Positions 876 through 62,735 are shown, counted from the first letter of the stretch. The stretch: 64,000 bases of DNA from an uncultured Eubacteriales bacterium (GCA_949077035.1 CARUPR010000002.1:4218-68217), one strand, 5' to 3'. Translations and numbers: made by a program. The notes: a model not told the origin generated them from the sequence alone.

Positions 876-1591
876 TTCAACCTCTGTCTAACAGTCTCAA
901 ATAAAACAATGCCACAAGCAACACTTGCATTAAGCGAATTGACTTTGCCTAAAAGAGGAAGGGTGATGACGCCATCGCAAGAGTCCAAAACTGTTTTTCT
1001 GATTCCCTTTCCTTCAGAGCCAATTACAATGGCAAGAGGTATATTTAAATTTTGTTTATATATTTCATTTCCGCCAATTTCAGCCCCAAAGACCCAAATG
1101 TCTTGATTTTTAAGATAGTCGATAGCCCTTTTGATGTTGACAACTTTTGCAATTGGCATTTCACTGATTGCACCTGTGCTTGTGCGGATGACTGTTTCAT
1201 TTATCTGGCAAGCCCTGTCTTGAGGAATGATAATTCCGTGAACGCCAGCACATTCGCAGGTTCTTATGATTGCCCCTAAATTGTGAGGGTCTTCAATGCC
1301 GTCAAGAATGACAATAAATGGTTTTTCACTTTCTTTTGCTTTATGCGCAATATCTTCAAGTGAGGTGTATTTAAAGTCGATTGTTTCTGCAATATAACCT
1401 TGATGATGTTCTGTTTTTGATTTTTTGTCAAGTAGGTTTTTTGGAAGAAACTCAAGCTTAATTTTTTTATCTTTAGCAAGCGAGATTATATCATCCTTTC
1501 TTGAAATATAATTTTTGTCTATATAAATTTTTGTGATTGTGGTTTCACTTTGCAATGCCTGTCTAATGGCATTTTTACCTTCAATTTGCAT
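872..1591 (-). CDS. rlmB: 23S rRNA 2'-O-ribose (Gm2251) methyltransferase, SpoU/TrmH family (RlmB/YacO)
   Basis: Contains LDGIEDPHNLGAIIRT, LAIVIGSEGKGI and LNASVACGIVLFE (the SpoU motifs). RBS is GGAGAA. It sits in synteny with sigH and mrnC. Confidence 0.85.
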   Translation of the reverse strand: MQIEGKNAIRQALQSETTITKIYIDKNYISRKDDIISLAKDKKIKLEFLPKNLLDKKSKTEHHQGYIAETIDFKYTSLEDIAHKAKESEKPFIVILDGIEDPHNLGAIIRTCECAGVHGIIIPQDRACQINETVIRTSTGAISEMPIAKVVNIKRAIDYLKNQDIWVFGAEIGGNEIYKQNLNIPLAIVIGSEGKGIRKTVLDSCDGVITLPLLGKVNSLNASVACGIVLFETVRQRLK

Positions 1592-1656: not shown

Positions 1657-1684
1657 TTGACAATTTCTTTTAAAGTGGTATAAT
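1657..1684 (+). promoter_or_regulatory. Near-consensus sigmaA promoter with an extended -10, serving the lipoprotein gene
   Basis: TTGACA (1657-1662), a 16-nt spacer, then TGgTATAAT (TG at 1676-1677, TATAAT at 1679-1684), about 75 nt upstream of the ATG at 1759. Confidence 0.75.
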
Positions 1685-1758
1685 AAATATATAAATTTAT
1701 ATAAATCTTTAATAAAAATTTATATGAAAGATTTAAATAATTTTTAAGGAGATAAAAT

Positions 1759-2100
1759 ATGAAAAATAAAATGGTGGGGGGGGGAATTCTTAAGAAGTTG
1801 GTTCCCTTTATGATGGCTGCTGTTGCAGTGGTTGTGACTGCATTAAGTATGACAGGCTGCACATATAAAGCAAAAGGGGTTACTAAATTTGTTTTTGTAA
1901 AAGATGAATATCTTATTTATAATAGAGTTTTGCATAAGGGTGATGCTTATACTGAGCAATCAGTCATTGATGATATAACTGCTCCAACTCCAATAATTGA
2001 TGCACATTGTGGATTGAAAAGAGGAACAAATATGTATACTCATTCAAAAGAAAAGCCACATGAGAGCGAATATGACTCAATTTGTGATATCTGCTTTTAA
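1759..2100 (+). CDS. Small lipoprotein (113-aa precursor) carrying an in-frame G9 tract
   Basis: Signal peptide MKNKMVGGGILKKLVPFMMAAVAVVVTALSMTGC ends in the lipobox SMTG-C. RBS is AAGGAG. A strong promoter lies upstream and an intrinsic terminator downstream. Confidence 0.7.
   Translation: MKNKMVGGGILKKLVPFMMAAVAVVVTALSMTGCTYKAKGVTKFVFVKDEYLIYNRVLHKGDAYTEQSVIDDITAPTPIIDAHCGLKRGTNMYTHSKEKPHESEYDSICDICF
1776..1784 (+). repeat. Homopolymeric G9 tract within codons 6-9 of the lipoprotein gene
   Basis: The sequence reads atggtGGGGGGGGGaattc. By eye, the only other G/C run this long in the window is at 47651-47659. Confidence 0.95.
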
Positions 2101-2126: not shown

Positions 2127-2162
2127 AAAAAAACCTAAGTCAATTGCGACTTAGGTTTTTTT
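2127..2162 (+). terminator. Intrinsic terminator, symmetric with an A-run and a T-run
   Basis: aaaaaaa CCTAAGTC aattgc GACTTAGG ttttttt, located 27 nt after the lipoprotein stop codon. Confidence 0.8.
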
Positions 2163-3808: not shown

Positions 3809-3892
3809 AAGTTTTCCTTTTATATGTTTTAAATTTTTTAAATGTTTTTTTAAAATTTTTTAAAAGTTTTAATTCTTTTTTTAATTTTTTTT

Positions 3893-3946
3893 AAATGTAT
3901 TAATTCTTTAAAATGTATTAATTCTTTAAAATGTATTAATTCTTTT
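3893..3946. repeat. Tandem 18-bp repeat, 3 copies (aaatgtattaattcttta)
   Basis: Copies lie at 3893-3910, 3911-3928 and 3929-3946. More degenerate copies lie upstream. The array is in the ychF upstream intergenic region. Confidence 0.9.
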
Positions 3947-4062
3947 AAAATATTTTAATTTATTTGAATATTTTAAAAATTGTTTTTATTGTTTTTAATG
4001 ACCAATAATTTCACTTTAAAAAGTTTAACCCAAATTGAGTTAAACTTTCTAAAGCTGAAATA

Positions 4063-7000
4063 TTATTCTCCCATTTCTTTTTGTTCTGGCTCTTGTTCTT
4101 TTGGTTTGTTGTTATCATCTTTGACAGTTTCATTTTTGTTTTCTTTTTCAGATGAAATATTTGTATAACTTTCACTTTGTTTTTTGATAGAGTCAGATTT
4201 AAGCCAATCTTTTTCTGGAGCTTGAGCTTTTTCTTTGGCCTTACTAAAGAGCTTAAACAAGTTTCTAAGACCATTTCCACGTTCTCTTCGCTCTTGCTTT
4301 TCAAATGGTTTTTCCATTTTGGTTGTAAGAGCTTTTTTATAAGATGCTGAAAAGTCTTCATTCTTTTCTTGTTGAAGGACTTTAAGGTCATTTCTGATTT
4401 TTTGCAACAATTTTTTCTTTTTATCAGACTTAGCAAGCTCTTCTGGTTTAATTTTAAGACGTCTTAATAAAACAGGGTCGATTGCTTCAAAGTCAATGTT
4501 TGCATCTTTGCACAAGTTTATAAGCAGGGTATAATCGATTTTGTCATCATTTTTGATTTCAACAGCTTGTTTTTCAAAGAATTTGGTGTCGCCTTTAGCA
4601 AAAGCTTCAATTGCTTTGTCAACAATATCTTCAGGCACTCCTTTTTCTGCAAGACTTTCAATGAATCCAACTTTCTTTTCAAATGTTTCGATATCTTGGT
4701 TAAGTTGGTCAAGTTGATTAAGCTCGTCAAGTAAATTCTTATCATCTTCATTAAGAAGGTCTTTCTTAATTTTAAGTGTTTCAATTTCATTTTGCTTATC
4801 TGTAAGGTTGGCATTAACTTGTTTTTCAATACCAGTATTATCAATTTCGTTTAATTTGTTTTTGATATTGTCTTTGTTTTCATCTTTTAAGATGTCTTGT
4901 AAATCTTTTGCATTTAAACCTATGCTTGACAATAATTCATTTGAATAATCTGCAGCTCGTTTTACATCTGCTGATATTTTCTTTTTCATTTTTTTGTCAA
5001 TGATTGCATTGTCTACAAACATATTCAAGAAATTGTAATTATTGTTTTTAATTGATTCTTCCCAACAATATTTAAATTCTTCAGCAATATTTGAAAATTC
5101 TTTAAATTTGTTTTCCTTAATCCAAAGCTCTTTTTGAGCATCGATAGAAAGTCCATTTTTTGAAATTTCTTTATATTCTTTTTTGAATTGACTATTATAA
5201 ATACCAAAATGTTTTGCAATATTTTTAGGTGAAGCTTCTGGATTTTCTACAATATAATCTATTAGCTCTTGCTTATAGTTGCGTTTGAAATTTGCATATC
5301 CGAGAAGTGGTTGAGCGTTTTCTGTTGTTGGTAGTTTGTTTTCTTGTTTTAAAAGATTTAAAATCAAATCGTAGACATTATTAATATCTTCAAGACCATT
5401 TGCTTTCTTCTTGTTTTTATTATGTTTTGCTTTTTGTCTATTAAGCTCATTGTCAACAGTCTTTTCACCCAAAGTTTTATCATAACAATGACTTTCAACC
5501 TTTGCATGAGCATTGAGAATATTGATTTGATTGTTTATAAATTCTTCAGCCTTTTTAATGCTAAATTCCTTACTGCTTGCATCCTTTTCATCTTTTAAAA
5601 TGATTCCTTTTTTATAAATATCATCAAATTTTAAAGAGCCAATATTTGTGGTGATTTTTTTGTTTTTAAGCATATCTGATATTGCGGTTGAAATATCTTT
5701 TCCACTTGAAATTTCTTTAAGTTTGTTGATAAGATTTTGTCTTTCGCTGAGTTTGCCTTCCTCATGTTCTGTAGAAAGATTTAAAGCATCAATAAGTCTG
5801 TTTGTGTTTTGATAGCCTTGAATATTGGTTTTTGCATCGTTTAACTGCTGTTCAAGCATCTCTGTTGTAATATTAAATTTATCGATAGTTTGATTTAACT
5901 TTGTTTTTGAATAGTTGCAACCTGCATCAACCAAAGCTCTATCAAAACAAAGTTCGAAATAGCTGCCATTTAATACATTTTCAATCACATTTATCGTTGA
6001 TTTATAATTATCAATCTTTTCCTTTGACAATTTTATCATATTATCATCAGCAATTGCATTTTCAAAAGGATGGATTTCAATTGCTTTTTCAATGATTGAA
6101 AGGGTGGTTGCAATGTTGGTTAAGTCAACTTCGGTATATCTCATATCCAACATAAATGTATTTTTTAAAGATGTAACTTTATTTAAAACTTCATCTTCTG
6201 ATACATTTAATTGATTGATATTTTTGCCAAAAGTAGTTGAAATATCAGTCAAAATATTTTTGCATAAATCTGATGTTTTTGTTGAAATATTATTAAATAT
6301 TTTGGTTTGTATTGCATTATATGCCTCAGAAAGTTCAATGGCTTTTTCAGACATATTGTTTTGTTTGTCTTTTTGCGAGGATATAGTTGCAATAATTTCA
6401 TCAAATGTCCCTTGATTAGATTCTAAGTTAGGTTTTTTTAAATCTGGCAAGATTATTCCTGATGGGACGCCTTTTTCAAGTGGTGCATCAAATAAATTAT
6501 TGAAATCTGTAAAAAGCTGTGTTATTAAATTTTGACAATCGGTGGTATAAGCATCATTATTAAATTCTTCTAAGATGAATGAATAAGCAAAATCATCTAA
6601 ATTGATATTTGAAGCTATTTCTTTGTCTTTGGTAATAATAGAACGAATTGATTTGTTGAGAATTATTTGTTCTACAGAATTTCTTGCCTCTTGATAACTA
6701 TGAAATTTGTCTTCTTTTTGATTGCTTTCAAGTTCATTCATAACTTTGGCATAATTTGCTGCCTGTTGCAAGTTTGCAATGCTGTCTCTGTTTTCTTTTG
6801 CAATGACATCAATTTTATCTAGCGATGAATTGATGTTGTCATTTGCTGCAATCAAAGAATCAAAAATTTCAACCTTTTCTTCATTTGGCACATCTTTTAA
6901 AATCATGTCAAGTTTTGTTTCATTTATATTCTTGTCAACAGAAAGTCTTCTTATAATGGCATGAGCATAGCGGTCTAATATCTTCTTTCTGGTGACTTGG

Positions 7001-9132
7001 TCAACCTCTTTTCCATTCATGATTTTTGAAAGTTGTCTGTCATTTGATTTTTCAATCATTGCTTCTTGATTGTTTATCATTGACTGAATTTTCTCTTCAT
7101 TTCTTACAACAACATCAAGATGATTGATAAAATCATTTAAATAGTCCGCCTTATTTTCAGAGAACATATTATTGATAAACTTATCTTTTTTATCTTCTGG
7201 AATATTGTTGAAATTTGAATTGATGAAATTATTGATAAGAACATTTCTTTTTTCGGTTGTTGTTTCATTTTGGATATTTTTCAGTGAAGAAAGCATATTT
7301 TGCTTGATTTTAAGACCATCACTGCTCATAAGTCTATCAAATCTTGGGATAGAATGTTCAGCTTCTAAATCTTGTGAGAAACCAACACCATAATTTTCAT
7401 AAATGTTGTAAAAACTATTTGCATTTTCATTTGAGAGGTAGAGGAAGTTGTAAAGTTCTTGCTCTCTTTTATACATATTTTCAACAGATTTGTTTAAATC
7501 TTTTTCGTTTTCATGGAATTTTTCGGCAAATTTGTTGTCTTCATCTTCCTGCTCTTCAATTTCGGCAACTCTGCTGTAAGCTATGTCAAATGATTTGATG
7601 ACAGCTTTATCTTTAAAGGCGACCATTGCTGAGCCAACCCCGACAAGAGCCATTCCAATAAAAGCTAGGGCGACAAGACCTCCAGTAAGCAATGCACCAA
7701 TACCAATGAAGAAGCCTAAAACAGCAATTGCATTTCCATAGTTTTCGGCGAACTTTTTAAAGTCATGTTCTTTTGTCGATTTTATTAAAGGCTTGTCTTT
7801 ATCATCCTCTTTGTCTTCTGGTTTTGCTTCTGTTTCTTGCTGAGGTTTTTTGTCATCTTTGTCATTTTCATTATTTTCCTCTGGGGGTTTTTTGTCATCT
7901 ACAATAGGCTCTACAAAATCATGGTTTTCATCTTCCTCTTCAGGCGTTTTATCGTCACTGCCATCATCGTCATCATCATCATTATCGTCAAAAAGCATAT
8001 TATAAGTTTCTGGCTTAAGATTATAAACATAGTCTGCATAATCTCTTTCATCCTTTTTAGAGAAGACCAAACCGCCAATTGTTTTATCAGTTTCTGCAGG
8101 CTCTTTTGCAGCCTCATAACCTGAAAGCTGACTTAATAATTCAATTGCCTGCTTTGACTGAGAAGTGAAATTGCCGTCTTTATCCTGTTTTAAATCTAAG
8201 GCAATAGAGCGTCTGTTGACAGAATTTTTGTTTTTTGCCGACTTAGGTGCAATTTGAATCACAAGCCTTGGGACTTCCACTCCATTTACAACTTCATAAA
8301 GAAGATTCATTTTTTCAAGTCTTTCAAATTTTCCATTGATAAAAAGGAAGTTGTCTTTTGTATTATCTTTTTCGTTTTGTTTTGAAATAAAGAAATAAGG
8401 TATATTGTCGGTATTATCTTTTTCGCTGCTAGGGTCAATAGTGGTGATTGAATAATCTCCAAATTTTGCAGATTCATTGCCACGATAAATTCCTGCATAG
8501 AGTGCAAGATTTTTTATTGGGAAGTCGTTTAGGTCTTTAGGTGAGGCATAACTTTTGCCAGAAGCCTTGTTTGTTGTCCTAAACATCTCATTGTCTTTGT
8601 CAAGGAAGGCTTCAACCGCACTTGCATTTAATGACACATCAACGCCAATGCCGGCTTGAAAATCTGAAGTATGAGAGAAAACATTGCCTTCATTATCGGC
8701 GATTTTTATTGATGTCGCATCAGAAGTGATTGTATAAACTTTGCCGCTTGATGCTGTAATTTGAAAGCAAGTTGCGCCATGCTCTTTTGAAATGGTTATG
8801 CTGCCTTGACCAGGTTTTATGTCAAGGGTGGCGGTCCCTAATTCATCAACAAGAGTTTTGCCATCAGCAGTTTTAAAGAGTGAGAGGTCGGAAAATTTGA
8901 GGGTATAACCATCATCCTTAGCCTTATCGATAGAAAAAATTTCTCGCTTAGTAGGAGTGCCATTTTCAAAAACTTGGTCAGAAAATTCAAAGAAATGCTC
9001 GGATAATGGGTCGATTGCCAAAGTTTGTCCTACGACAATTTCTTTTCCTTCTTGATTTTTTAATTTTTTACCATTCTTATCAACAGGTGAAATTTTGTTT
9101 GTCAAAGAATTAATATTATTTAAAATAGCCAT
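4063..9132 (-). CDS. Giant (1,689 aa) membrane-anchored coiled-coil protein of unknown function
   Basis: The reading frame is uninterrupted. I place the start at ATG 9132, where AAGGAG lies 6 nt upstream; the ORF-track start at 9147 contains that RBS. There is no signal peptide. An N-terminal domain of about 400 aa is followed by an acidic run (DDNDDDDDDGSDD) and a roughly 39-residue hydrophobic hairpin (AIAVLGFFIGIGALLTGGLVALAFIGMALVGVGSAMVAF). The remaining ~1,100 aa are K/E/N-rich and look helical. Confidence 0.8.
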   Translation of the reverse strand: MAILNNINSLTNKISPVDKNGKKLKNQEGKEIVVGQTLAIDPLSEHFFEFSDQVFENGTPTKREIFSIDKAKDDGYTLKFSDLSLFKTADGKTLVDELGTATLDIKPGQGSITISKEHGATCFQITASSGKVYTITSDATSIKIADNEGNVFSHTSDFQAGIGVDVSLNASAVEAFLDKDNEMFRTTNKASGKSYASPKDLNDFPIKNLALYAGIYRGNESAKFGDYSITTIDPSSEKDNTDNIPYFFISKQNEKDNTKDNFLFINGKFERLEKMNLLYEVVNGVEVPRLVIQIAPKSAKNKNSVNRRSIALDLKQDKDGNFTSQSKQAIELLSQLSGYEAAKEPAETDKTIGGLVFSKKDERDYADYVYNLKPETYNMLFDDNDDDDDDGSDDKTPEEEDENHDFVEPIVDDKKPPEENNENDKDDKKPQQETEAKPEDKEDDKDKPLIKSTKEHDFKKFAENYGNAIAVLGFFIGIGALLTGGLVALAFIGMALVGVGSAMVAFKDKAVIKSFDIAYSRVAEIEEQEDEDNKFAEKFHENEKDLNKSVENMYKREQELYNFLYLSNENANSFYNIYENYGVGFSQDLEAEHSIPRFDRLMSSDGLKIKQNMLSSLKNIQNETTTEKRNVLINNFINSNFNNIPEDKKDKFINNMFSENKADYLNDFINHLDVVVRNEEKIQSMINNQEAMIEKSNDRQLSKIMNGKEVDQVTRKKILDRYAHAIIRRLSVDKNINETKLDMILKDVPNEEKVEIFDSLIAANDNINSSLDKIDVIAKENRDSIANLQQAANYAKVMNELESNQKEDKFHSYQEARNSVEQIILNKSIRSIITKDKEIASNINLDDFAYSFILEEFNNDAYTTDCQNLITQLFTDFNNLFDAPLEKGVPSGIILPDLKKPNLESNQGTFDEIIATISSQKDKQNNMSEKAIELSEAYNAIQTKIFNNISTKTSDLCKNILTDISTTFGKNINQLNVSEDEVLNKVTSLKNTFMLDMRYTEVDLTNIATTLSIIEKAIEIHPFENAIADDNMIKLSKEKIDNYKSTINVIENVLNGSYFELCFDRALVDAGCNYSKTKLNQTIDKFNITTEMLEQQLNDAKTNIQGYQNTNRLIDALNLSTEHEEGKLSERQNLINKLKEISSGKDISTAISDMLKNKKITTNIGSLKFDDIYKKGIILKDEKDASSKEFSIKKAEEFINNQINILNAHAKVESHCYDKTLGEKTVDNELNRQKAKHNKNKKKANGLEDINNVYDLILNLLKQENKLPTTENAQPLLGYANFKRNYKQELIDYIVENPEASPKNIAKHFGIYNSQFKKEYKEISKNGLSIDAQKELWIKENKFKEFSNIAEEFKYCWEESIKNNNYNFLNMFVDNAIIDKKMKKKISADVKRAADYSNELLSSIGLNAKDLQDILKDENKDNIKNKLNEIDNTGIEKQVNANLTDKQNEIETLKIKKDLLNEDDKNLLDELNQLDQLNQDIETFEKKVGFIESLAEKGVPEDIVDKAIEAFAKGDTKFFEKQAVEIKNDDKIDYTLLINLCKDANIDFEAIDPVLLRRLKIKPEELAKSDKKKKLLQKIRNDLKVLQQEKNEDFSASYKKALTTKMEKPFEKQERRERGNGLRNLFKLFSKAKEKAQAPEKDWLKSDSIKKQSESYTNISSEKENKNETVKDDNNKPKEQEPEQKEMGE

Positions 9133-9374
9133 TAAATTCTCCTTCATAAATATATATTAATAATATTATACAACCTTATATAATAAAAGTCAAGATTTCG
9201 ACATTGTTTGTGCCTAAAATTTGAAAAATTGGAAATAAATTTTATAGAAGTAGTTTATTTGACAAGGTTTTGACAAAATCTACCCTTAAAGTTGAGATTA
9301 ATGGCAAATTTATTTTGACTTTTTATCTTTTTTTGTATAAAATATTATACTGAAAGTGTTTATAAGGAGAAATA

Positions 9375-17617: not shown

Positions 17618-17753
17618 TTTATACTCCTTTCTCTTTTTTTATTATAAATATTATATAATATTGTTTTATTTTTGTCAAGGTAAAAACGCTAAAGAAATGT
17701 TTATATTTATTTTCTTAAGAATGGAAAGTATGATATTTTATCTGTCATTCAAC

Positions 17754-17793: not shown

Positions 17794-20700
17794 TTATTTC
17801 ACTTTTTGACGTTTTCTAAGGGCTATTGTTATGCCGATAACAACGCCAACTGCAATGACACCAATCACGATTGCAATGATTGCGAAAGCATTGAGAGGGT
17901 CAGTTCTGACAACTTTATATGAATATAAAAGGTGGCCGCTTGCAGTGTAAAGTTGAATATAATAAGTGCCTGATTGAAGAACGGTAATTCTTTCATTTTC
18001 TGCATAACTTGAAAGATTATCTGCGGTGTAATCTCTTCTTAGAGTGTCTATCAACAGATAGCAATCACCAACAGTATCGTAAAGATTTTGCACATTGAAA
18101 GAAATTACAATATCTTTTGTTGTTTTTTCACCTTCTGGTAATGAAACGCTGATAGGTGGGTTGGCAGTATTTATCCAAAATTCAAAAGTGAAGGTAGAAC
18201 CAATTGTATTTATAAGTTCGCTATTATTAAGGTTGATTGTGATTTTATACCTTCCGCTTCCTGTTTTTTCATCAAGGTAGTTGATGGTAAGAGCAGATAA
18301 ATATTCTTTTCCATCGATATTGATTGTAGGGAAGTTTGCAATTTCAATAAGTGAATCTGTGATATCAAGATTGTCTTTTTCAATCTTTTCGACATAATAT
18401 TGACTATATCCAGAGAATTCATAGGCATATCTTGATTCATTTTTGTTGAGGATAGTAAAGCTATATTCTTCAGTGCGGACAGGAATACCTGTGATTGAAG
18501 TTGCATTAAATGAAATTGTATAGAATCCTGCATTAGAGAATGTGTATGTGTTGTTTGAAGATGTAAAGCCTGTATAATCTCTTCCATTTCTCTTTACGCT
18601 TATTGTAGGCATCCTTGAAGGTTGATAATAAGTTGAAAGATTGGTTGGTTTGATTATCACAGAACTATTGTAAACAGCTTTTTGAATTGGTTCTGTTATT
18701 ATTGTTTCACCAGCTTCATTTGTGCTTGAAATGGTGAAAGGCACATGACTAAGGAAGATTATATCAATATATTTACTTGTTTTAAACATCTGCACATTGG
18801 CAGGCGAACAAGAATCGTATATTTTGATTCTATAAGTTCCTGGCTCATTTAAGAACACATAAGAGTCAATTTTATCAGAATAAATCGTGCTGTTGACCAC
18901 TACATATTCGCCATTAAACAATTTTGTTATTTCAAGATTGATTTTGTTTGCTTCAATTCCATAATAGCTTGAGAAGTTGAGCTTAAGTTTATTAAAACTT
19001 GTATCAGTTTCTTTATTAGCAACGATTACAACTGAATTTTCATCCTTTATTGATGCTGTAGTTCCGGTAGGTGTTTCGTAATTAAATGTGCTGATAATAT
19101 TGTTTGTTTCTGCAATATAAATTATTGTGAAGTCACCAGCCGATTCGCTGCAACTATAATGATAAATTTCAACTGTCACATTGCTGCCAGTGCTGTCTAT
19201 AATAGGTGTTGAAAGTTCAACTTTTGCTTTTTCATTGGTTGTAATTTTGATACGATTGTTCTTATCTGCATAATCAACACTTACAATATAATTGTTTTCT
19301 ATGGTTTTGTTGTCAAGGGTAGTGTATTTTACATCACTTTTTTCAACATTAAGACCATCAACAGTTATATAATAGAATGAGTTTGAACTATCAAGTATTG
19401 ATACCTTGTAGATTTTGCATAACTCTGTGAAAACTTCATCACTGTCATATTTGACGAGTATTGTATAATCGCCAACACCTGAAATAGTATAACCGCTTGT
19501 TTCTGATGTATTGCTGTTTATATTAACCCATGTCAAACCATTGTCGTTTGAAATATAAACACTATAACCATAGCCAGTTTCATAATTTAATTTGCTGTTG
19601 TAATTTAAGCTTTGACCATTGAAGAATCTAACTGTTACATTTTCAGAATAGGTGGTTATGTTTTCTGATGTCCCATAGTAAGTCTTGCCATTAAAGTTTA
19701 CACTTGTGTTTGGCACAATTCCGATGTTTGACTCTTCTATAGGTTGTTGGTTTTTATCATTGAAGATAATTCCACCAGCAATCACCTCATTTGCATAAGA
19801 AGTTCTGAAAGGTAATTTGTTATAAAGTCTTATGTGTAAGGTTTTGATGATATTTTCGCTTTCAACATCATGGACGATAAGCTTATAATAATCATCATAG
19901 AATACCTCTTTTGAAGGTTCAAACTTAAGCTGGCAAAGATTTGTTGAAGAATTTATATTTGAAGTAATATCATTTGTCACATCAATTCCATCTTTATTTA
20001 ATACCTTTAAGCTATATAACAGGGTATTAAATGTATAGTTGATTGTATTTGAAGATAGATATGTGATAGTGCCGTCATTTTCAGCAAGTTCATAAACTGT
20101 GCTTAATCCTGTCACTTCTCGATAACTTACCTCATTTGCAAGCTGAATAATTGTTGTGATGTTTCCAAAATTGTCAACAATGTCATATCTGACTTTTTGT
20201 GCCGAGTTTGCACCCAAATTTATTGCAATTTGAAGGGTGGTATTTCCTGGCAGGGTTTTGAAAGTGATAAATGATAATGCTGAGATGTATTCCTCTGTTG
20301 GAGTCCATGTCCCATAAATTAATTGGTTGGCTTCCATTATCTTATTCCACTTATTGTCTGTGGTTGCATTGCTATTAAATTGTGAAATGGTAATTTTTGT
20401 TGGATAAACATAACTTGTTTTTTCACTTGCAACTTGTGCTGAAGTTGGGACATTTATATTAAGTATCGCTGATGTTTTGGTTGGGTCTTCCACCTTTTGG
20501 GTATTCAATGTTGCATCCATCACCGAAATATAAATTTGTGAAGAGAGACCAAGTGTCCTGTCAGCAAGCACCATAGTATGCTTATCTGAAGAAGAAGTCA
20601 CATTTTCAAACAGAGAAGAAAGCGTTTTGATTGTGAAGGTGATTCCACTTGAAGGGAAGGCAATTTGATAAATCTGATTGTCTTCAAGCCAAGGTGATTT

Positions 20701-23700
20701 TAAATATCTTATAGTGCCTTCGCCAGCTTTAGTTAAGGTGAAATAACCCCAGTCATCAGATTTATAATTTAAATCCTTTATTTCAAATCCGCTGTTTGAA
20801 TAGATATTGAAACCATCTTTAATTTGGTCATTTTCTATTGTTACATCATCTTTTAATACCGCATTTGTGTATTTTATAGCTGTATTTTGTTGTTCTGAAA
20901 CATCTTCAATGCCAGAGGAGAGCTGAACAATATAAACAGTCATATTTTTTGCATAATCCATTTCAACGATTTCATAATAGCCATATCTTAAGTCGGAAAT
21001 TTCTTCATCAGTTGGAATAAATCTATAAATTCTTTCAGAGAATGAATTTTTGTCAATTTGAGTATAACTTTTGATGTTGTCTATTTCTCTATAATAGATT
21101 GCTTGAGTATCGTAAGGATTGTTTGGAGCATCTAAGAGGGTTGAAACAAGGGTGTCTGTGAAGAAGTCTTTTGTCACATTAAAGCTGAAATACTTAAAGT
21201 ATCCATTGTCTACATTGTAAGTATAGCTTGCTTCATTAATAGTGGAAAGGGTGACATTGTTGATTTCTTCATTTTTATAATCATAATACTTTCTCATTGA
21301 CATAAGTTGATAGTTTGCTGTCAATGATTTTGTTGCATTTTCAGTCATATACATCAAATTTTGCAGGTTTTGAGAAGGAAGAGTTTTGTCAAAATATATT
21401 CTTTTTGTTATTGAAGAATAATAATCTCTGTTGAAACCTTCAAATTGCATTGTAATTTCAATGTATAAGTCTTTTAAATTGCTTTTGATAAAATTTTCTG
21501 TATTTATAGTAAATGATTTTGTATTGCCGTCAGTGACAATCTCATTTCGAGTATCTGTGAAAGGTATTTGAGAATTGCTTGACCTGATTGAAATTGTTTT
21601 TTCATCAATTTTAGCTTCATATTCACTTTCAGGGACTTCCCACTGAATTGTCAATGAATCTGAATTTGTGAAATAGTTGTTTTTTGTATCTTTTGTGCTG
21701 TTTAAAAGATATCCGTCAGAGCCTAAAATGTCAAAGTCAGGAGTTTGTGATGTGATTTCAAATCCAAACTTATAAAGGCTGAAAAATTCGCTTGTATTTC
21801 CTATGTTGGATGCCTGATAGATTGTTACAACATAATTTCCCTTTTGATAGAAATTGTTTATTGGAGATGATTTATCAATATTTCCATTCTTTCCACTTGC
21901 AGGGTAGAGATTGAGATAACCATTGGTTTGAGTTCCGTCAGAGTAATAATATTTTTCAACCTCTTTATTGTTTTCAATAACCTTTGCCTGCACTTCAGCG
22001 AAGATTTGATATTCTTGAATTGAAATTGAATTTATATATTCAAGTGCATCGCTTTCTCTTGTAAAGCTATCTACAAGCACACCTTCTACATAAACATCAT
22101 AGCTTCTGTTAGAACTGTTATATTCATATCTTGCATTTCCATAGTAAGAAAGGTTGTCATTCTTATTTAAAGTATAATCTTTTATATTGTTATCATTTAC
22201 AGAAGCAACGCTTGATATAGTATATTTATATTTTGGAATATAAAGTGATATTGGAAGCTTGTTTCCGCTTATTGCAACACTTTGAATACTATCATTTTCT
22301 TTATAGTTTTCTTTTGAATAGAATGAACCATTGTTTAAACCATTTTGGTTATATTTTGGGAATGATATTTCAATTGAAGAGTTGTTGCCGCTGTAGAAGC
22401 TTAAAAGGATATCGCCGCCAACCAAACTTTCAAGTGAAGAAATGATATTTCCATTTTCATCTGTCAACACTCTTCCATTTTCATCAACAGCATTGACAGG
22501 TTCAAGTTTGCTGATAAGACCTTTGTCGTCAATTATTATCGATAAAGTGCGTCTAAAGAAATCATTTTTTGAATTGTTTTCATTTTGTGAATTTTCTTTA
22601 TATGTTCTTTCAAAGACATATTTGCCAGGAAGAGGAGTATTGTTTGAACCAAGGGCTAAATTAAATTCCTCTTGTTGACCAGTTTCATATTTTAAGTCTG
22701 ATGCAGTGAAAACTGCTAATTTTTGTGATGGCTCATCTTGTAAATCATAGTAGTAATAATAATTGTTGTTGCCTGGGTATTTCATCAATTTTGGGATGAA
22801 AGGGTAATAATATAATGTGATGTTTTGAAGTTCTGACCCATTTTCAGCAACAGGTATATAGGTAAGTTTCAATTCCTGTTTTGCTGTGGTAGGTGAGTAA
22901 TATGAGAATTTGTATTTATAATCAGATTTTATATAATCTTTGTCATTAATTTTGCCGTTTATATGTGTATAAACTATATTCTCGTTCTCATCTTCATATG
23001 TATAAAGATTTCCTACCAAACTGAAGCTTGAGAAATCAAGGACTTCATTTTTTGAATTTTTAAGCATCATCTGAGAAGCATCTGCAGTCACATTGAAAGA
23101 AATATAACCACTAGGATAGTTTTTATAAAGAATTTCCTCATTTTCTGCAAAGAAGGTATTTGAGGCATCGCGGACTAAAATTTTAAAGGTTTTGTTGTCA
23201 GCGATGACATTATTATCTTCATCATAGAATTCGATATCATATCTATATTTTTCATAATCAAGAGTTGGCAGTATAGGTGAGAAGTTTGAGCTGTCGCCAT
23301 CTTTCAAATAATACTTTTCGTTTATATCAATTACCAGATAGAAGCTGTTGTAATTTGTTATGCCTGTTTCTTCTTTAGGTTGTGTGGTTATTTCCCTAAT
23401 ATTTTTTAATTTTTCATTATTAGTTTTCTTGAAAAATTCGCCAACTTTTTCGTGAAGTTTTTCGCTTGCATTTGCTATATCAATGCCATATTGATATGGT
23501 GTGATAGACAAAATATCATCAATATTTTCAATGTAAATAGCCTTTTGCTGTGACCAAACGATTGAAATATATGTTCCAACTGGTGGCACAGGCAGACATT
23601 CATTGTTTTTGAATAAACTTCTTGACACATTTCCGTCATCTATTTCTTGAATAAACACTGGTGAAGATGTATCAATCAAATAAATCTCAAAAGCAGAGTT

Positions 23701-26262
23701 TCCAGCTTGGTCATAAACTTCAAGAATATAGAAACCATCATTAGACTTAACATAAGTTGAAGGAATGGTAGAATTGTAAGAAGATGAATTTGCATATTCT
23801 GTCCATTGCATACGATTGCTTAAATCAATTTTACTTGAGATTGGCAATATTTTTTCATTGAGAAGCGAACTTATAAGTCTTGATTGCTCACTTGAAGAAA
23901 GTGAAGAATAATAGTTTATCTGTTTTGTTGGGATATAACTTACATATCCATATGTTTTGGCTCCACTTGCCTTTTCGTCCCAAGATAAAACAAATGGTTG
24001 GTTTGTGTTGTAAGAAGAAAATTCATCTTTTACTTGGTAGGTTGTTGTGGAAATCAATGATACATTTCTTGAAGAAATATTCTTGATTTGATTTGTGTCG
24101 ATAGTAAAAGTTCTGGTGCTTGGTTTTGATGAATTTGATGAGGTTATTTTAATGGTGAAATATGCATTTGAATATTTGTTTGCAGTTTCAATCAAAATAC
24201 CATTCTTGTTTGCGATTTTTTCATTGAAATCTTTACTAAAATCATCGTCATTTTCTGATGCAGCAAAAGTTTGGTATATCATGTTGTAAGAAGCCAAATC
24301 TTGAATAAGGACATCTTTGAAGAAATATGATTTGTCTTGATAGTTTTGTGCAGAGAGGGTTATTTCAACTTTTGCGTCATAGATATTGTTTTCTGCATTG
24401 TTTAAAATATAAACATTTTTGTTGGTAAATCCATTTGTATAAACTTCATTAAGTTGGCCGTCAAAGACATCAACAGTTGGGGTAGTGTTTGAAATTGTAA
24501 AGTAGAAAATTTGATAGTGATATTTTGCACTTTGAAGTGTCCCGCTTGTGGACATAAATGAATCAAACTTATATTGAATTATATAAAGGTATCTTCCTGC
24601 TGCATTTTGATTGTCACCCAAAAATTCCTCAGTATCTAAAACATCGTTGTCATTATTAAGTTTATAAATTCTGCTGAATTCTCTGTCATTTTTAGCATTT
24701 GTTGAGAATTTGATAGGTGGCTGATTGGTCGAAGCAGGTGATAATTTTTCTTTCACAATTGCATTTAAGGCATAATCTTTTAATTTTTCTATATCAAAAT
24801 TTTTATCGCTGCTTGGATTTGCATTTTTAAGGATATTTTTAATGGTTTCATCTGCAGTAGCATCTGTTAAGATATGATTGTTTACTATGCTTGTAATATC
24901 TGCAGAAAGATAATATCCATCTTTATCATCATATGATTTTATATCCTTGCTTTTTGGCTGGTTTGTGTTTATGTTTATATCTGAATAGTCAGAATACATA
25001 GTTTGATAACCATAGATATACAATCTTTGAGATTTGTTTTTAAAAATTGAATTGTTGCTAAGTTCTTCTAAATCTAAATTATAGATTGTAGTCTTGCCAT
25101 CTCTTTCAATTGTGTAAAGGTATGAGAATGAAATATCATAACTTCCAATATCAGAGAAGACAATTGTTGCAGTTTTCTCGCCATTATCTTCTTGCAGATA
25201 ATATCTTACAAATCCATCTTTTTCAGAAATTTCATTTCCTAATTGGTCAAGTGCAACAAGTTTTCCATCTTGATACTCAATCTTTGTTTGTGATTTGTTG
25301 TTGTCAAGGTTTGAATACTCGACAGTAAGTGAAAATTTTTCAGGATTGAAACTGATTGAAGGAAGGGTGTTTACTTTGTTTGAATATGCAAAATTATAAA
25401 AATAGTAAGTTGAAAAGTCATTTGATGAGGTTAAGTTTGAAATTTGCAAGTTTTCAGAAGGTGTGATTTGTGGTTTTCCACTTGCTGTATCAAAATATGT
25501 ATTTGAATTAAATATCATAAAGTTGTAATAAATATCACGCTTTGTTGATTGAAAAGTTATTCCGCCATTGGTTGTTTTAAATTCAAGGATTGGCACAACC
25601 AAAGTGTAAATTCCTTCTTTATTTAAAATGACTTGATTTTTCGTGTCTTCTTCACCAAACTCAATATTTGCATTGTTGGTGTTAAGTAAAAATTCTAAGT
25701 TGAATTGTTTTGGGGTGAGAGAGGTATTTGATGGTATGAATGAATGTTCATGTGCTTTAAAATAATTTTGTGGAGATTGATAATTAAGAAGGTTTTCTTT
25801 GTCACCCAAGTTATTATTTGCCACATCCTGTGAGGTAAGGTCATAATAGAGGGCGATTGCAGATTCGGTATAATCAAAATAATAGTAAACCTGATTATTA
25901 TCCTTTTGTGGTTGATAATAATAGTTTTCTTCGGTATAAGAATCTGTTCCGTCTTCATTTTTTACTTCATCTCTTGTGATGGTGTCTGTTGCAATGCTTA
26001 TGGTATTATAACTTCCATTTTGAAATAAATAAACAGTATCGCCAACATTTGAAACTTCAATTCCATTTCCATTTGAAGGAGAAATTTGAAAGTAATCGGG
26101 CAAACTGTTTGAAATTTGCGATTGCGAAGCAAAATCGGCATGAGAATATTCTTCACCGCCAACCTTATTTAAATTTAAAGTAAGAAACCCGCCAAAACTC
26201 AAGCTAAATATTAAGGCCAAAGGCAAGGAAAGTTTTTTAAATAAATTTGAAATTTTTTTCAT
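17794..26262 (-). CDS. Giant (2,822 aa) surface protein with an N-terminal signal peptide and a C-terminal TM anchor; adhesin-like
   Basis: The start is set at ATG 26262, with GAGGTG 4 nt upstream. The signal peptide is MKKISNLFKKLSLPLALIFSLSFGGFL. The body is N/S/T/Y-rich and looks beta-rich. The C-terminus is LNAFAIIAIVIGVIAVGVVIGITIALRKRQKVK. I saw no LPXTG motif. Confidence 0.8.
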   Translation of the reverse strand: MKKISNLFKKLSLPLALIFSLSFGGFLTLNLNKVGGEEYSHADFASQSQISNSLPDYFQISPSNGNGIEVSNVGDTVYLFQNGSYNTISIATDTITRDEVKNEDGTDSYTEENYYYQPQKDNNQVYYYFDYTESAIALYYDLTSQDVANNNLGDKENLLNYQSPQNYFKAHEHSFIPSNTSLTPKQFNLEFLLNTNNANIEFGEEDTKNQVILNKEGIYTLVVPILEFKTTNGGITFQSTKRDIYYNFMIFNSNTYFDTASGKPQITPSENLQISNLTSSNDFSTYYFYNFAYSNKVNTLPSISFNPEKFSLTVEYSNLDNNKSQTKIEYQDGKLVALDQLGNEISEKDGFVRYYLQEDNGEKTATIVFSDIGSYDISFSYLYTIERDGKTTIYNLDLEELSNNSIFKNKSQRLYIYGYQTMYSDYSDININTNQPKSKDIKSYDDKDGYYLSADITSIVNNHILTDATADETIKNILKNANPSSDKNFDIEKLKDYALNAIVKEKLSPASTNQPPIKFSTNAKNDREFSRIYKLNNDNDVLDTEEFLGDNQNAAGRYLYIIQYKFDSFMSTSGTLQSAKYHYQIFYFTISNTTPTVDVFDGQLNEVYTNGFTNKNVYILNNAENNIYDAKVEITLSAQNYQDKSYFFKDVLIQDLASYNMIYQTFAASENDDDFSKDFNEKIANKNGILIETANKYSNAYFTIKITSSNSSKPSTRTFTIDTNQIKNISSRNVSLISTTTYQVKDEFSSYNTNQPFVLSWDEKASGAKTYGYVSYIPTKQINYYSSLSSSEQSRLISSLLNEKILPISSKIDLSNRMQWTEYANSSSYNSTIPSTYVKSNDGFYILEVYDQAGNSAFEIYLIDTSSPVFIQEIDDGNVSRSLFKNNECLPVPPVGTYISIVWSQQKAIYIENIDDILSITPYQYGIDIANASEKLHEKVGEFFKKTNNEKLKNIREITTQPKEETGITNYNSFYLVIDINEKYYLKDGDSSNFSPILPTLDYEKYRYDIEFYDEDNNVIADNKTFKILVRDASNTFFAENEEILYKNYPSGYISFNVTADASQMMLKNSKNEVLDFSSFSLVGNLYTYEDENENIVYTHINGKINDKDYIKSDYKYKFSYYSPTTAKQELKLTYIPVAENGSELQNITLYYYPFIPKLMKYPGNNNYYYYYDLQDEPSQKLAVFTASDLKYETGQQEEFNLALGSNNTPLPGKYVFERTYKENSQNENNSKNDFFRRTLSIIIDDKGLISKLEPVNAVDENGRVLTDENGNIISSLESLVGGDILLSFYSGNNSSIEISFPKYNQNGLNNGSFYSKENYKENDSIQSVAISGNKLPISLYIPKYKYTISSVASVNDNNIKDYTLNKNDNLSYYGNARYEYNSSNRSYDVYVEGVLVDSFTRESDALEYINSISIQEYQIFAEVQAKVIENNKEVEKYYYSDGTQTNGYLNLYPASGKNGNIDKSSPINNFYQKGNYVVTIYQASNIGNTSEFFSLYKFGFEITSQTPDFDILGSDGYLLNSTKDTKNNYFTNSDSLTIQWEVPESEYEAKIDEKTISIRSSNSQIPFTDTRNEIVTDGNTKSFTINTENFIKSNLKDLYIEITMQFEGFNRDYYSSITKRIYFDKTLPSQNLQNLMYMTENATKSLTANYQLMSMRKYYDYKNEEINNVTLSTINEASYTYNVDNGYFKYFSFNVTKDFFTDTLVSTLLDAPNNPYDTQAIYYREIDNIKSYTQIDKNSFSERIYRFIPTDEEISDLRYGYYEIVEMDYAKNMTVYIVQLSSGIEDVSEQQNTAIKYTNAVLKDDVTIENDQIKDGFNIYSNSGFEIKDLNYKSDDWGYFTLTKAGEGTIRYLKSPWLEDNQIYQIAFPSSGITFTIKTLSSLFENVTSSSDKHTMVLADRTLGLSSQIYISVMDATLNTQKVEDPTKTSAILNINVPTSAQVASEKTSYVYPTKITISQFNSNATTDNKWNKIMEANQLIYGTWTPTEEYISALSFITFKTLPGNTTLQIAINLGANSAQKVRYDIVDNFGNITTIIQLANEVSYREVTGLSTVYELAENDGTITYLSSNTINYTFNTLLYSLKVLNKDGIDVTNDITSNINSSTNLCQLKFEPSKEVFYDDYYKLIVHDVESENIIKTLHIRLYNKLPFRTSYANEVIAGGIIFNDKNQQPIEESNIGIVPNTSVNFNGKTYYGTSENITTYSENVTVRFFNGQSLNYNSKLNYETGYGYSVYISNDNGLTWVNINSNTSETSGYTISGVGDYTILVKYDSDEVFTELCKIYKVSILDSSNSFYYITVDGLNVEKSDVKYTTLDNKTIENNYIVSVDYADKNNRIKITTNEKAKVELSTPIIDSTGSNVTVEIYHYSCSESAGDFTIIYIAETNNIISTFNYETPTGTTASIKDENSVVIVANKETDTSFNKLKLNFSSYYGIEANKINLEITKLFNGEYVVVNSTIYSDKIDSYVFLNEPGTYRIKIYDSCSPANVQMFKTSKYIDIIFLSHVPFTISSTNEAGETIITEPIQKAVYNSSVIIKPTNLSTYYQPSRMPTISVKRNGRDYTGFTSSNNTYTFSNAGFYTISFNATSITGIPVRTEEYSFTILNKNESRYAYEFSGYSQYYVEKIEKDNLDITDSLIEIANFPTINIDGKEYLSALTINYLDEKTGSGRYKITINLNNSELINTIGSTFTFEFWINTANPPISVSLPEGEKTTKDIVISFNVQNLYDTVGDCYLLIDTLRRDYTADNLSSYAENERITVLQSGTYYIQLYTASGHLLYSYKVVRTDPLNAFAIIAIVIGVIAVGVVIGITIALRKRQKVK

Positions 26263-26505
26263 AAAACACCTCACAAATATTTTATCACAAGCAATAAAAA
26301 AAACAAAATAAATTTGTGTGTTTATATAAATAATATTAAATATTATTATATAAATAATATACTAAGAATATATAAGTATTAAATATAATACTAAACTATT
26401 GTATACATAATATAATTTTTTAACCAACTTCTAAGCTATTTTTAATTTTAATTGAAAAAAATGTCAAAAGGGATGAGATTTTCATAAATAAGTAAAGAGG
26501 TAATT

Positions 26506-47118: not shown

Positions 47119-47610
47119 TTATAAAAAACACTTATTTAATTCATTGAAAGAATTAAAAAAAAGCATATCGTTTAATATGCTTTTTTTGCAGTGATTAAAG
47201 ACTGTTTTCTTCTTCCTCTTCAATCTTTTTTCAAATAAATCTTCTTTTTTAAGATTGTTTTGCTGTGTTAAATTAAGCACTGTATCTGTCATTTTTATGC
47301 TTGGGTTTTGCATTACAGCGGCAAGCACAATATCCTTATCATTTTTAAGTTTATCTGGTGCAAAAGGGAAATTTTTTACAGCTTCAAGCACAATTTCTTT
47401 GTCATGTTTAAGTTCTTTAGGTTCATTCTTTAGTTCATTATTATGTTCATTATTATAAATTTTTACAGCTGCACGCGCAACTTCTTCGTCAACTTTAATT
47501 TTATTTGATACATAATGAAGATTTTTTGCAACTTCAAGCAAAATTTCTTCGTCGATTTTAAGTTTCTCTTCATTATTATTTAAATTAGGTTTTTTTGCTT
47601 TATTTTTCAT
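47119..47610 (-). CDS. DUF4116-repeat protein; the 3' end may be a decayed remnant
   Basis: Repeats include EEILLEVAKNLHYVSNKIKVDEEVARAAV and DKEIVLEAVKNFPFAPDKLKNDKDIVLAAVMQNP. RBS is GAGGAGG. The ORF reads through a terminator hairpin at 47154-47187. Confidence 0.6.
   Translation of the reverse strand: MKNKAKKPNLNNNEEKLKIDEEILLEVAKNLHYVSNKIKVDEEVARAAVKIYNNEHNNELKNEPKELKHDKEIVLEAVKNFPFAPDKLKNDKDIVLAAVMQNPSIKMTDTVLNLTQQNNLKKEDLFEKRLKRKKKTVFNHCKKSILNDMLFFNSFNELNKCFL
47154..47187. terminator. Bidirectional intrinsic terminator lying inside the tail of the DUF4116 ORF
   Basis: aaaaaaaaa GCATAT cgttta ATATGC ttttttt. Confidence 0.7.
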
Positions 47611-47641: not shown

Positions 47642-47668
47642 ATTATACTCGGGGGGGGGAATTGTCAA
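47642..47668 (-). promoter_or_regulatory. Consensus promoter whose spacer contains a C9 (G9 on the + strand) tract
   Basis: The reverse strand reads TTGACA (47663-47668), then att-CCCCCCCCC-gag as a 15-nt spacer (47648-47662), then TATAAT (47642-47647). It lies about 30 nt upstream of the DUF4116 start. Confidence 0.7.
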
Positions 47669-49840: not shown

Positions 49841-51487
<1,647 letters not shown>

Positions 51488-61265: not shown

Positions 61266-61354
61266 CATAGAAAAAGAAAGCATTCATTTCATTGCTGTCT
61301 TTATTGCGTTTCTAAAGAAAGCAGTCACTTTGTTTATGTCTAAATTGTGTTTAT
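61266..61354 (-). repeat. Second copy of the bipartite intergenic element seen at 2163-2257
   Basis: The reverse strand reads ttataaacacaatttagacataaacaaaGTGACTGCTTTCTTTAGAAACGCAAtaaag...atgaatgctttctttttctatg. The 41-bp internal period and the position directly after a terminator match the first locus. Confidence 0.75.
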
Positions 61355-61387
61355 AAAAAAGCTAGGATTAAACCTAGCTTTTTTTTT
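61355..61387 (-). terminator. Intrinsic terminator after rplL
   Basis: The reverse strand reads aaaaaaaaa GCTAGG tttaat CCTAGC tttttt. Confidence 0.8.
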
Positions 61388-62564: not shown

Positions 62565-62592
62565 ATTATACTTATTTTTTTTTGTTTGTCAA
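62565..62592 (-). promoter_or_regulatory. SigmaA promoter of rplJL
   Basis: The reverse strand reads TTGACA (62587-62592), a 16-nt spacer, then TATAAT (62565-62570). Confidence 0.7.
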
Positions 62593-62706: not shown

Positions 62707-62735
62707 TTGACAATAAGTGAAATATTAGGTATAAT
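62707..62735 (+). promoter_or_regulatory. Consensus sigmaA promoter of the transglutaminase-like gene
   Basis: TTGACA (62707-62712), a 17-nt spacer, then TATAAT (62730-62735). The RBS AAGAGGA lies before ATG 62758. Confidence 0.75.

Follow-up and report, generated by a model that had tools for sequence, protein, structure and literature searches.

A nine-guanine tract in the signal peptide of a lipoprotein gene is a candidate ON/OFF phase switch in an uncultured gut Clostridia bacterium

We have analyzed a 64,000-nt stretch of DNA (hereafter the window; 31.7% G+C) from an uncultured Eubacteriales bacterium, in which a small lipoprotein precursor gene lies on the plus strand together with its own expression signals (Table 1). 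The flanking genes all lie on the minus strand and encode a sigma-70 family factor (Sigma70_r2/r4 match; sigH-like by position), a SpoU methylase (rlmB-like), a mini-RNase III (mrnC-like) and YchF. The lipoprotein promoter agrees with the consensus at 12 of 12 hexamer positions and has the TG extension in addition. It is among the five perfect TTGACA-N14-19-TATAAT sites of the 64 kb, where 0.26 would be expected. A terminator hairpin sits between the convergent lipoprotein and mrnC genes (folding energy -20.9 kcal/mol, z = -5.1); a simple terminator scan missed this hairpin, which was confirmed by folding and repeat finding. A preliminary description of this DNA had claimed a consensus extended -10 promoter, a terminator belonging to the gene and an opposite orientation between rlmB and mrnC, and all three are borne out, by the hexamer and TG matches, by the inverted repeat with its folding energy, and by the two minus-strand neighbors, respectively. 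The same description took the gene for an inserted cassette. This view holds only relative to B. subtilis: the order sigH-rlmB-lpp-mrnC-ychF is kept in a sister species, and the lipoprotein gene is therefore not a recent insertion. A recent insertion was rejected considering that the synteny is shared with this sister species, at 67% protein identity. An Rfam scan of 1400-2800 gave nothing meaningful, with no riboswitch or leader RNA in the 68-nt 5' UTR.

Table 1. Positions of the features discussed, counted from the first nucleotide of the window
Feature	Position	Strand	Description
Sigma-A type promoter	1657..1684	+	-35 TTGACA 1657-1662, 16-nt spacer, extended -10 TGgTATAAT 1676-1684
Shine-Dalgarno AAGGAG	1746..1751	+	7 nt 5' of ATG 1759; direct sequence read
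Lipoprotein precursor gene	1759..2100	+	113 aa + stop; ORF call
G9 homopolymer, proposed slippage tract (tract 1)	1776-1784	+	Sequence read and homopolymer census
ATG ATG (Met18, Met19)	1810..1815	+	96-aa form P0001 starts at Met18; overlap read from sequence
Bidirectional intrinsic terminator hairpin	2127..2162	both	A7-CCTAAGTC / GACTTAGG-T7, perfect 15-nt inverted repeat
C9 in promoter spacer (G9 on +, 47651-47659; second tract)	47642..47668	-	Perfect TTGACA/TATAAT, 15-nt spacer

Several repeats surround the gene. A 17-nt direct repeat (1620-1658, 2.4 copies) adjoins the -35 hexamer of the lipoprotein promoter, and the 5' UTR is taken up by a 12-nt AT-rich repeat (1687-1740, 4.5 copies). They may represent a UP element or regulator sites, or simply low complexity. 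Just beyond the terminator lies a tandem element with a 41-nt period (2186-2260, about 2 copies), whose core reads TTGCGTTyCTAAAGAAAGCAsTCAC on one strand. A related copy in the opposite orientation is found near rplL (61273-61362), and several short-read contigs have an end inside the first copy of the element (window 2149, 2194 and 2215). These observations suggest a dispersed or copy-variable repeat, for which Rfam gave no match.

Nine consecutive G interrupt the beginning of the lipoprotein ORF. The DNA reads ATG AAA AAT AAA ATG GTG GGG GGG GGA ATT, so that codons 6-9 (GTG GGG GGG GGA) encode V-G-G-G, and the sequence and the ORF agree in this respect with the preliminary description. A census of homopolymers in the 64-kb window found eight G5 runs, no G6-G8 runs and two G9 runs (tract 1 and 47651-47659), and no C run of at least five. 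The scarcity of G/C homopolymers reported earlier, with one other run at 47651, is thus confirmed, the second G9 being the sole other run of at least six. When a first-order Markov model was applied, 0.014 G runs of at least nine were expected per window and 2 were observed. Among the Gly codons of the 39 other ORFs (16,378 codons in all), GGG is the least used, with 6.1%, and none of the 43 Gly-Gly pairs is spelled GGG-GGG. Considering this Markov excess and the bias against GGG, the tract is neither a compositional nor a codon-usage by-product. Frequent slippage begins at about 7-8 G/C or longer. In terms of length and over-representation, tract 1 has the properties of an SSR contingency locus. 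In about 26 kb of extra sequence, consisting of 20 kb of the sister species and 6.4 kb beyond the window, there is no G/C run of at least seven; the longest in the 6.4 kb is G6, and the 20 kb contain no long tract. Nothing in these data points to a large set of such tracts across the genome.

We rebuilt the gene in silico with 6 to 13 G and translated each length. Only G6, G9 and G12 are in frame. With G10 a stop (aat tct taa) follows after 11 aa, and with G8 (cct tta tga) after 17 aa, which matches the frameshifts derived by hand in the preliminary description (a stop at codon 12 for G10 and at codon 18 for G8, with the present length in frame). Translation ends after 17-18 aa with G8 or G11 and after 10-11 aa with G7 or G10. 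The tract is therefore proximal to the 5' end of the gene, and G7, G8, G10 and G11 all terminate after 10-18 codons. The early TGA of the G8 allele shares bases with the Met18 codon (ATGA), and gene callers start the ORF of this allele at Met18, which leaves a 96-aa stump. ATGA is a classic coupling arrangement and would make reinitiation at Met18 possible. G8 could therefore be a leaky allele, or one whose product is not exported. Annotation pipelines record the OFF allele as a 96-aa protein from Met18, so the switch would be hidden in such records.

The protein has the layout of a lipoprotein precursor. The G+LPP and PROSITE-type lipobox patterns match the window protein and both orthologs, in the arrangement MKNKMVGGGILKK-LVPFMMAAVAVVVTAL-SMTG/C. 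Codons 1-33 (1759-1857) form the signal peptide, with a basic n-region, a hydrophobic core and a lipobox with an invariant Cys; the codon of the lipid-modified Cys34 (1858-1860) follows, and then a mature domain of about 79 aa. Based on the conserved lipobox, assignment of the product as a lipoprotein is supported, lipidation and cleavage being predicted. A profile search of the full protein library returned 18 clusters at E <=0.001, which together with the window protein gave an alignment of 19 sequences. In this alignment, Cys34 is invariant (19/19) and Gly33 nearly so; Leu58, His59, Gly61, Tyr105 and Cys109 are also invariant, and Cys84, Pro100 and Cys112 nearly invariant. This conservation suggests a His/Cys3 metal site or disulfides in the mature domain. 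The family members are small (about 105-135 aa), and those relatives for which a genome record could be found belong to uncultured Clostridia/Eubacteriales MAGs. Neither Pfam nor NCBIfam holds a family for this lipoprotein. AlphaFold (AF2) with the 19-sequence alignment predicted a beta-rich structure with a pLDDT of 81 overall and >90 in the mature domain, whereas with 2 sequences only the pLDDT was 38 and the model unusable. Foldseek found nothing similar to the AF2 model in the PDB at E <=0.001. Since TTGACA and TATAAT promoters also precede the orthologous genes on contigs L003 and L007, we consider this a strongly expressed small lipoprotein family. It is an uncharacterized one, which combines strong promoters, invariant His and Cys residues and a confident predicted fold with no structural match.

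The relatives also show what stands at the position of the tract in this family. The ortholog P0002 (67% identity), from an uncultured Clostridia MAG with the order sigH-rlmB-lpp-mrnC-ychF, has an N-terminus that reads MKNSKNGIIKKIIP, and its DNA at the position of the tract is aaa aat ggt att, without a tract. The MKN before the tract and the G-I-x-K-K-x-x-P after it are kept in this ortholog. In a relative from a mouse-gut MAG (51%), the N-terminus is MKKGIIKKFVP. The N-terminal consensus of the 18 clusters is M-x-x-K-G-x-x-K-K, in which the Gly and Lys12 persist in most of the family, and this conserved Gly is matched by the final Gly of the tract. A Gly run or tract is found in 0 of the 18 relatives of the alignment, and the tract is accordingly lineage-specific. 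From these alignments, the tract lies in a length-tolerant, translated part of the n-region, and the frame through it is the functional one.

To compare tract lengths, we used consensus contigs from MAGs or Logan assemblies throughout; these are short and break nearby. In the protein database, one 90% cluster holds two forms, of 113 aa and of 96 aa, the latter with its start at Met18. The 96-aa form is encoded on two contigs (L001 and L002), both of which are G8. L002, from MAG GCA_948653375.1, has 0 substitutions relative to the window over 1447 nt, and a second contig of this MAG departs from it by a single substitution in 5958 nt. Over 2215 nt, L001, from run SRR36216081, carries 15 substitutions, all of them within rlmB or sigH and none in 1592-2215. 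As an observation in its own right, 13 of these 15 cluster in rlmB (window 895-1538, 1.8%) and the next 625 nt have zero, which looks like a recombination mosaic. The 113-aa form with G9 occurs in the window and in ERR3199618 and ERR3199668 (contigs L004 and L005). ERR3199668 is identical to the window throughout the 12.6 kb compared; it is probably the same strain as the window or the source of the window, and is for this reason probably not independent of it. Other searches, of genome and metagenome contigs, returned no further strains. An exact-flank DNA pattern with a variable G gap had 0 matches in genome contigs and 0 in metagenome contigs. A protein-guided search for the locus returned only two tract-less orthologs (L006 and L007) from genome contigs and one partial, irrelevant match (L008) from metagenome contigs. 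An exact look-up of the window RlmB protein gave no record, and look-ups of MrnC and the sigma factor found contigs that end short of the tract.

Three clearly distinct genomes can be compared in this way: the window (G9), GCA_948653375.1 (G8) and SRR36216081 (G8). Their distances from the window are 1.35e-4 substitutions per site for GCA_948653375.1 and 2.9e-3 for SRR36216081. From this background divergence, only 0.001 and 0.026 changes, respectively, would be expected in any 9-nt stretch, indicating that an average site has been much less prone to change than the tract. On the tree ((window, GCA_948653375.1), SRR36216081), the states 9, 8 and 8 need an OFF-to-ON reversion or two independent -1 events, and either course would be the signature of a recurrently slipping tract. 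Tract 1 is thus polymorphic between strains, with G9 and G8 in near-identical flanks, as in an SSR contingency locus. This comparison of tract length among related genomes had been proposed in the preliminary description, where non-slippery orthologs with no sign of variation were regarded as evidence against a switch. The orthologs are indeed non-slippery, but the variation occurs within the tract-bearing lineage, so their sequences do not refute the switch.

The second tract differs from the first in position and in behavior. On the minus strand, its promoter reads TTGACA-ATT-CCCCCCCCC-GAG-TATAAT, in which CCCCCCCCC is C9, so the homopolymer lies between the -35 and -10 hexamers. Downstream are an SD and the ATG of a gene for a DUF4116 repeat protein (47119..47610, -). 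The spacer is 15 nt long with C9 and would reach the optimal 16-17 nt with C10-C11. However, no length variation was found: the tract is 9 in the window, in GCA_949902715.1, in GCA_948653375.1 and in SRR36216081, so the spacer is constant in four assemblies, the diverged strain included. This invariance indicates that a run of nine G is not subject to extreme instability in this organism, and the second tract is accordingly regarded as context and not as a demonstrated switch. Separately, the DUF4116 protein has 163 aa in the window and 88 aa in the SRR36216081 strain (L017 2680-2946), the shorter protein resulting from the loss of internal repeat units. Further perfect TTGACA...TATAAT promoters lie at 62565-62592 (-), 17650-17678 (-) and 62707-62735 (+); the spacer of the first of these contains an A9 run.

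Taken together, we consider it likely that the G9 tract is a hotspot of slipped-strand mispairing and serves as a translational ON/OFF switch, or contingency locus, of a strongly promoted small surface lipoprotein in this low-GC gut species, and on sequence grounds tract 1 is a well-supported candidate for such a locus. With G9 (or G6 or G12), translation from the ATG would give a complete Sec/Lsp-type signal peptide, composed of a K-rich n-region, a hydrophobic core and the lipobox SMTG/C, and the beta-rich mature domain would then be lipid-anchored on the cell surface. When one G is gained or lost in replication, the frame would shift within the n-region and run into a stop after 10-18 codons. 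In this case, the lipoprotein would be absent or present in traces only, until a later slip restored the frame. Switching may be frequent and reversible within the population, the protein is presumably exposed on the surface, and the ON/OFF heterogeneity might be selected, for example by host antibody or phage; the family would be a likely target of such pressure. The central claim of the preliminary description, a candidate ON/OFF phase switch in a lipoprotein signal peptide, is supported by the G8/G9 polymorphism and by the truncation of the frame in G8.

The main rival explanation shares the slippage mechanism with the contingency locus, and selection is the only difference between them. 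According to this explanation, the tract is a non-adaptive hotspot or a sign of gene decay, in which a G run arose recently in a dispensable gene and G8 is a loss of function toward pseudogenisation, with no selected bet-hedging. We regard it as unlikely. In terms of history, none of the 18 relatives and neither of the two orthologous loci has the tract, which is therefore young and could have been a short-lived accident of mutation; nevertheless, a passive accident would still have to account for the reversion or the repeated identical event that 9, 8, 8 on the tree requires. Two of the three distinct genomes are OFF, as decay would predict, but these OFF alleles carry no other lesion and the 96-aa remainder is 100% identical. 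The stability of the second tract and the lack of more long tracts in the extra sequence also favor this rival, whereas the run of G goes counter to the strong bias against GGG, and the perfect promoter is kept, as in the orthologs.

It is very improbable that G8 and G9 reflect an assembly or sequencing artefact, that is, homopolymer miscalls or consensus noise around one true length everywhere. Several platforms are prone to errors at homopolymers of 8-9 G, and all of the data are consensus contigs of the kind described above, which gives this concern its weight. However, the two assemblies that are G8 at tract 1 both read the other 9-mer tract as 9, and systematic homopolymer miscalling is disfavored for this reason. 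Moreover, G8 was found in two independent data sets from different strains, G9 was reproduced in two further runs, and the contigs are continuous through the tract with perfect flanks. That expression does not depend on the tract at all, with the real start at Met18/Met19 or with rescue by transcriptional or ribosomal slippage, is scarcely credible: gene callers accepted the 96-aa ORF from Met18 and the ATGA overlap with the G8 stop could permit reinitiation, but a downstream start at Met18 is rejected by the position of the SD (none before Met18, and AAGGAG 7 nt before Met1), by the lipobox pattern (the Met18 form is without the Lys/Arg n-region and fails G+LPP) and by n-region conservation, since the residues from Met1 to Met18 are kept family-wide (M-K...K-G-I/L-L-K-K) and this stretch is accordingly translated.

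A translational ON/OFF switch by slippage, which we prefer, would be textbook in its mechanism and unsurprising to a specialist; what is notable is the organism group, in which such switches are hardly documented. Theiss and Wise reportedly described in 1997 that the surface lipoprotein P78 of Mycoplasma fermentans switches ON and OFF at high frequency through a single-base homopolymer indel near the 5' end of the coding region. P78 resembles the present case in being a lipoprotein frameshift switch in a low-GC, Firmicutes-related lineage, and differs from it in that the tract is poly-A and lies in the region of the mature protein, and in that P78 is the substrate-binding lipoprotein of an ABC transporter. 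The lipoprotein family of the window has no sequence relationship to P78. Homology to the variable lipoproteins of mollicutes (Vlp, Vsa, Vpma and P78) was not found, as there was no Pfam or NCBIfam match, and the likeness is mechanistic only.

Intragenic poly-G/C contingency loci are described for Campylobacter jejuni, Neisseria meningitidis (e.g. hmbR and hpuA) and Helicobacter pylori (PMC4965091, PMC3786947), and C. jejuni NCTC11168 is reported to carry 29 polyG/C loci of at least 7 (PMC4965091). Such loci and tract 1 have in common a homopolymer of G or C, about 8-11 nt long and placed in the 5' portion of the ORF, a surface component as the product, a premature stop after a slip of one nucleotide, and a tract that stands out in a genome otherwise poor in tracts. 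Unlike those proteobacterial pathogens, the host here belongs to uncultured, Gram-positive-type gut Clostridia, and there are two tracts in about 70 kb, of which one varies. For the second tract, the anatomical counterpart is found in the promoter-spacer homopolymer switches of N. meningitidis porA (poly-G) and opc (poly-C), which also have a homopolymer between the -35 and -10 positions (references in PMC5084427); the hexamers around the second tract are perfect. Considering that the second tract showed no length variation in 4 assemblies, this resemblance is anatomical only.

In the sortase-dependent pilus of Bifidobacterium breve, an intragenic G tract lies between the Sec signal-peptide part and the rest of the gene, and slippage sets ON or OFF (PMC9187656). 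This system resembles ours in that a G tract is combined with the signal peptide of a surface protein in a Gram-positive gut commensal (PMC9187656). On the other hand, B. breve has a high-GC genome and the target is an LPXTG pilin, whereas here it is a lipoprotein; switching in B. breve was demonstrated by maximum-depth sequencing and in mice (PMC9187656), whereas the evidence here is a comparison between assemblies. SSR phase variation has been documented mostly in pathogens, and a recent review asks whether this is a real association or a database bias; the documented switches of Clostridia in that review are invertible promoters (PMC11868660). Repeat-slippage phase variation is barely documented in Clostridia and in gut commensals, the B. 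breve pilus G tract being the gut-commensal case found in our searches (PMC9187656). Accordingly, tract 1 adds a concrete slippage candidate in uncultured gut Clostridia, backed by length polymorphism between near-identical genomes.

A broader reading goes beyond the ON/OFF switch at tract 1. The lineage might use poly-G tracts as a small genome-wide contingency set, placed in a signal peptide and in a promoter spacer in a Campylobacter-like manner, with tract 1 having three states: G9 would give the full lipoprotein, G8 a reinitiated form without the n-region that is neither exported nor lipidated, and G10 nothing. We consider this improbable. If it were true, tract 1 would be more than a binary switch.

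Other repetitive and large features were also observed in the window. A collagen-like protein with G-x-T triplet repeats (49841..51478, -) contains a 264-nt super-repeat of about 2.9 copies; it has 545 aa in the window and 449 aa in GCA_949902715.1, and this difference is either real variation in repeat copy number or an assembly collapse. Two giant ORFs lie on the minus strand, at 4063..9147 (1694 aa) and 17794..26274 (2826 aa). The 1694-aa ORF, in which acidic stretches of low complexity and a predicted membrane segment occur, has a counterpart of 1668 aa in the sister species (L003) for which no Pfam domain is recorded. Between the start of ychF and the end of this ORF, an AT-rich tandem array of about 160 nt (3818-3977) shows periods of 9, 18 and 31 nt.
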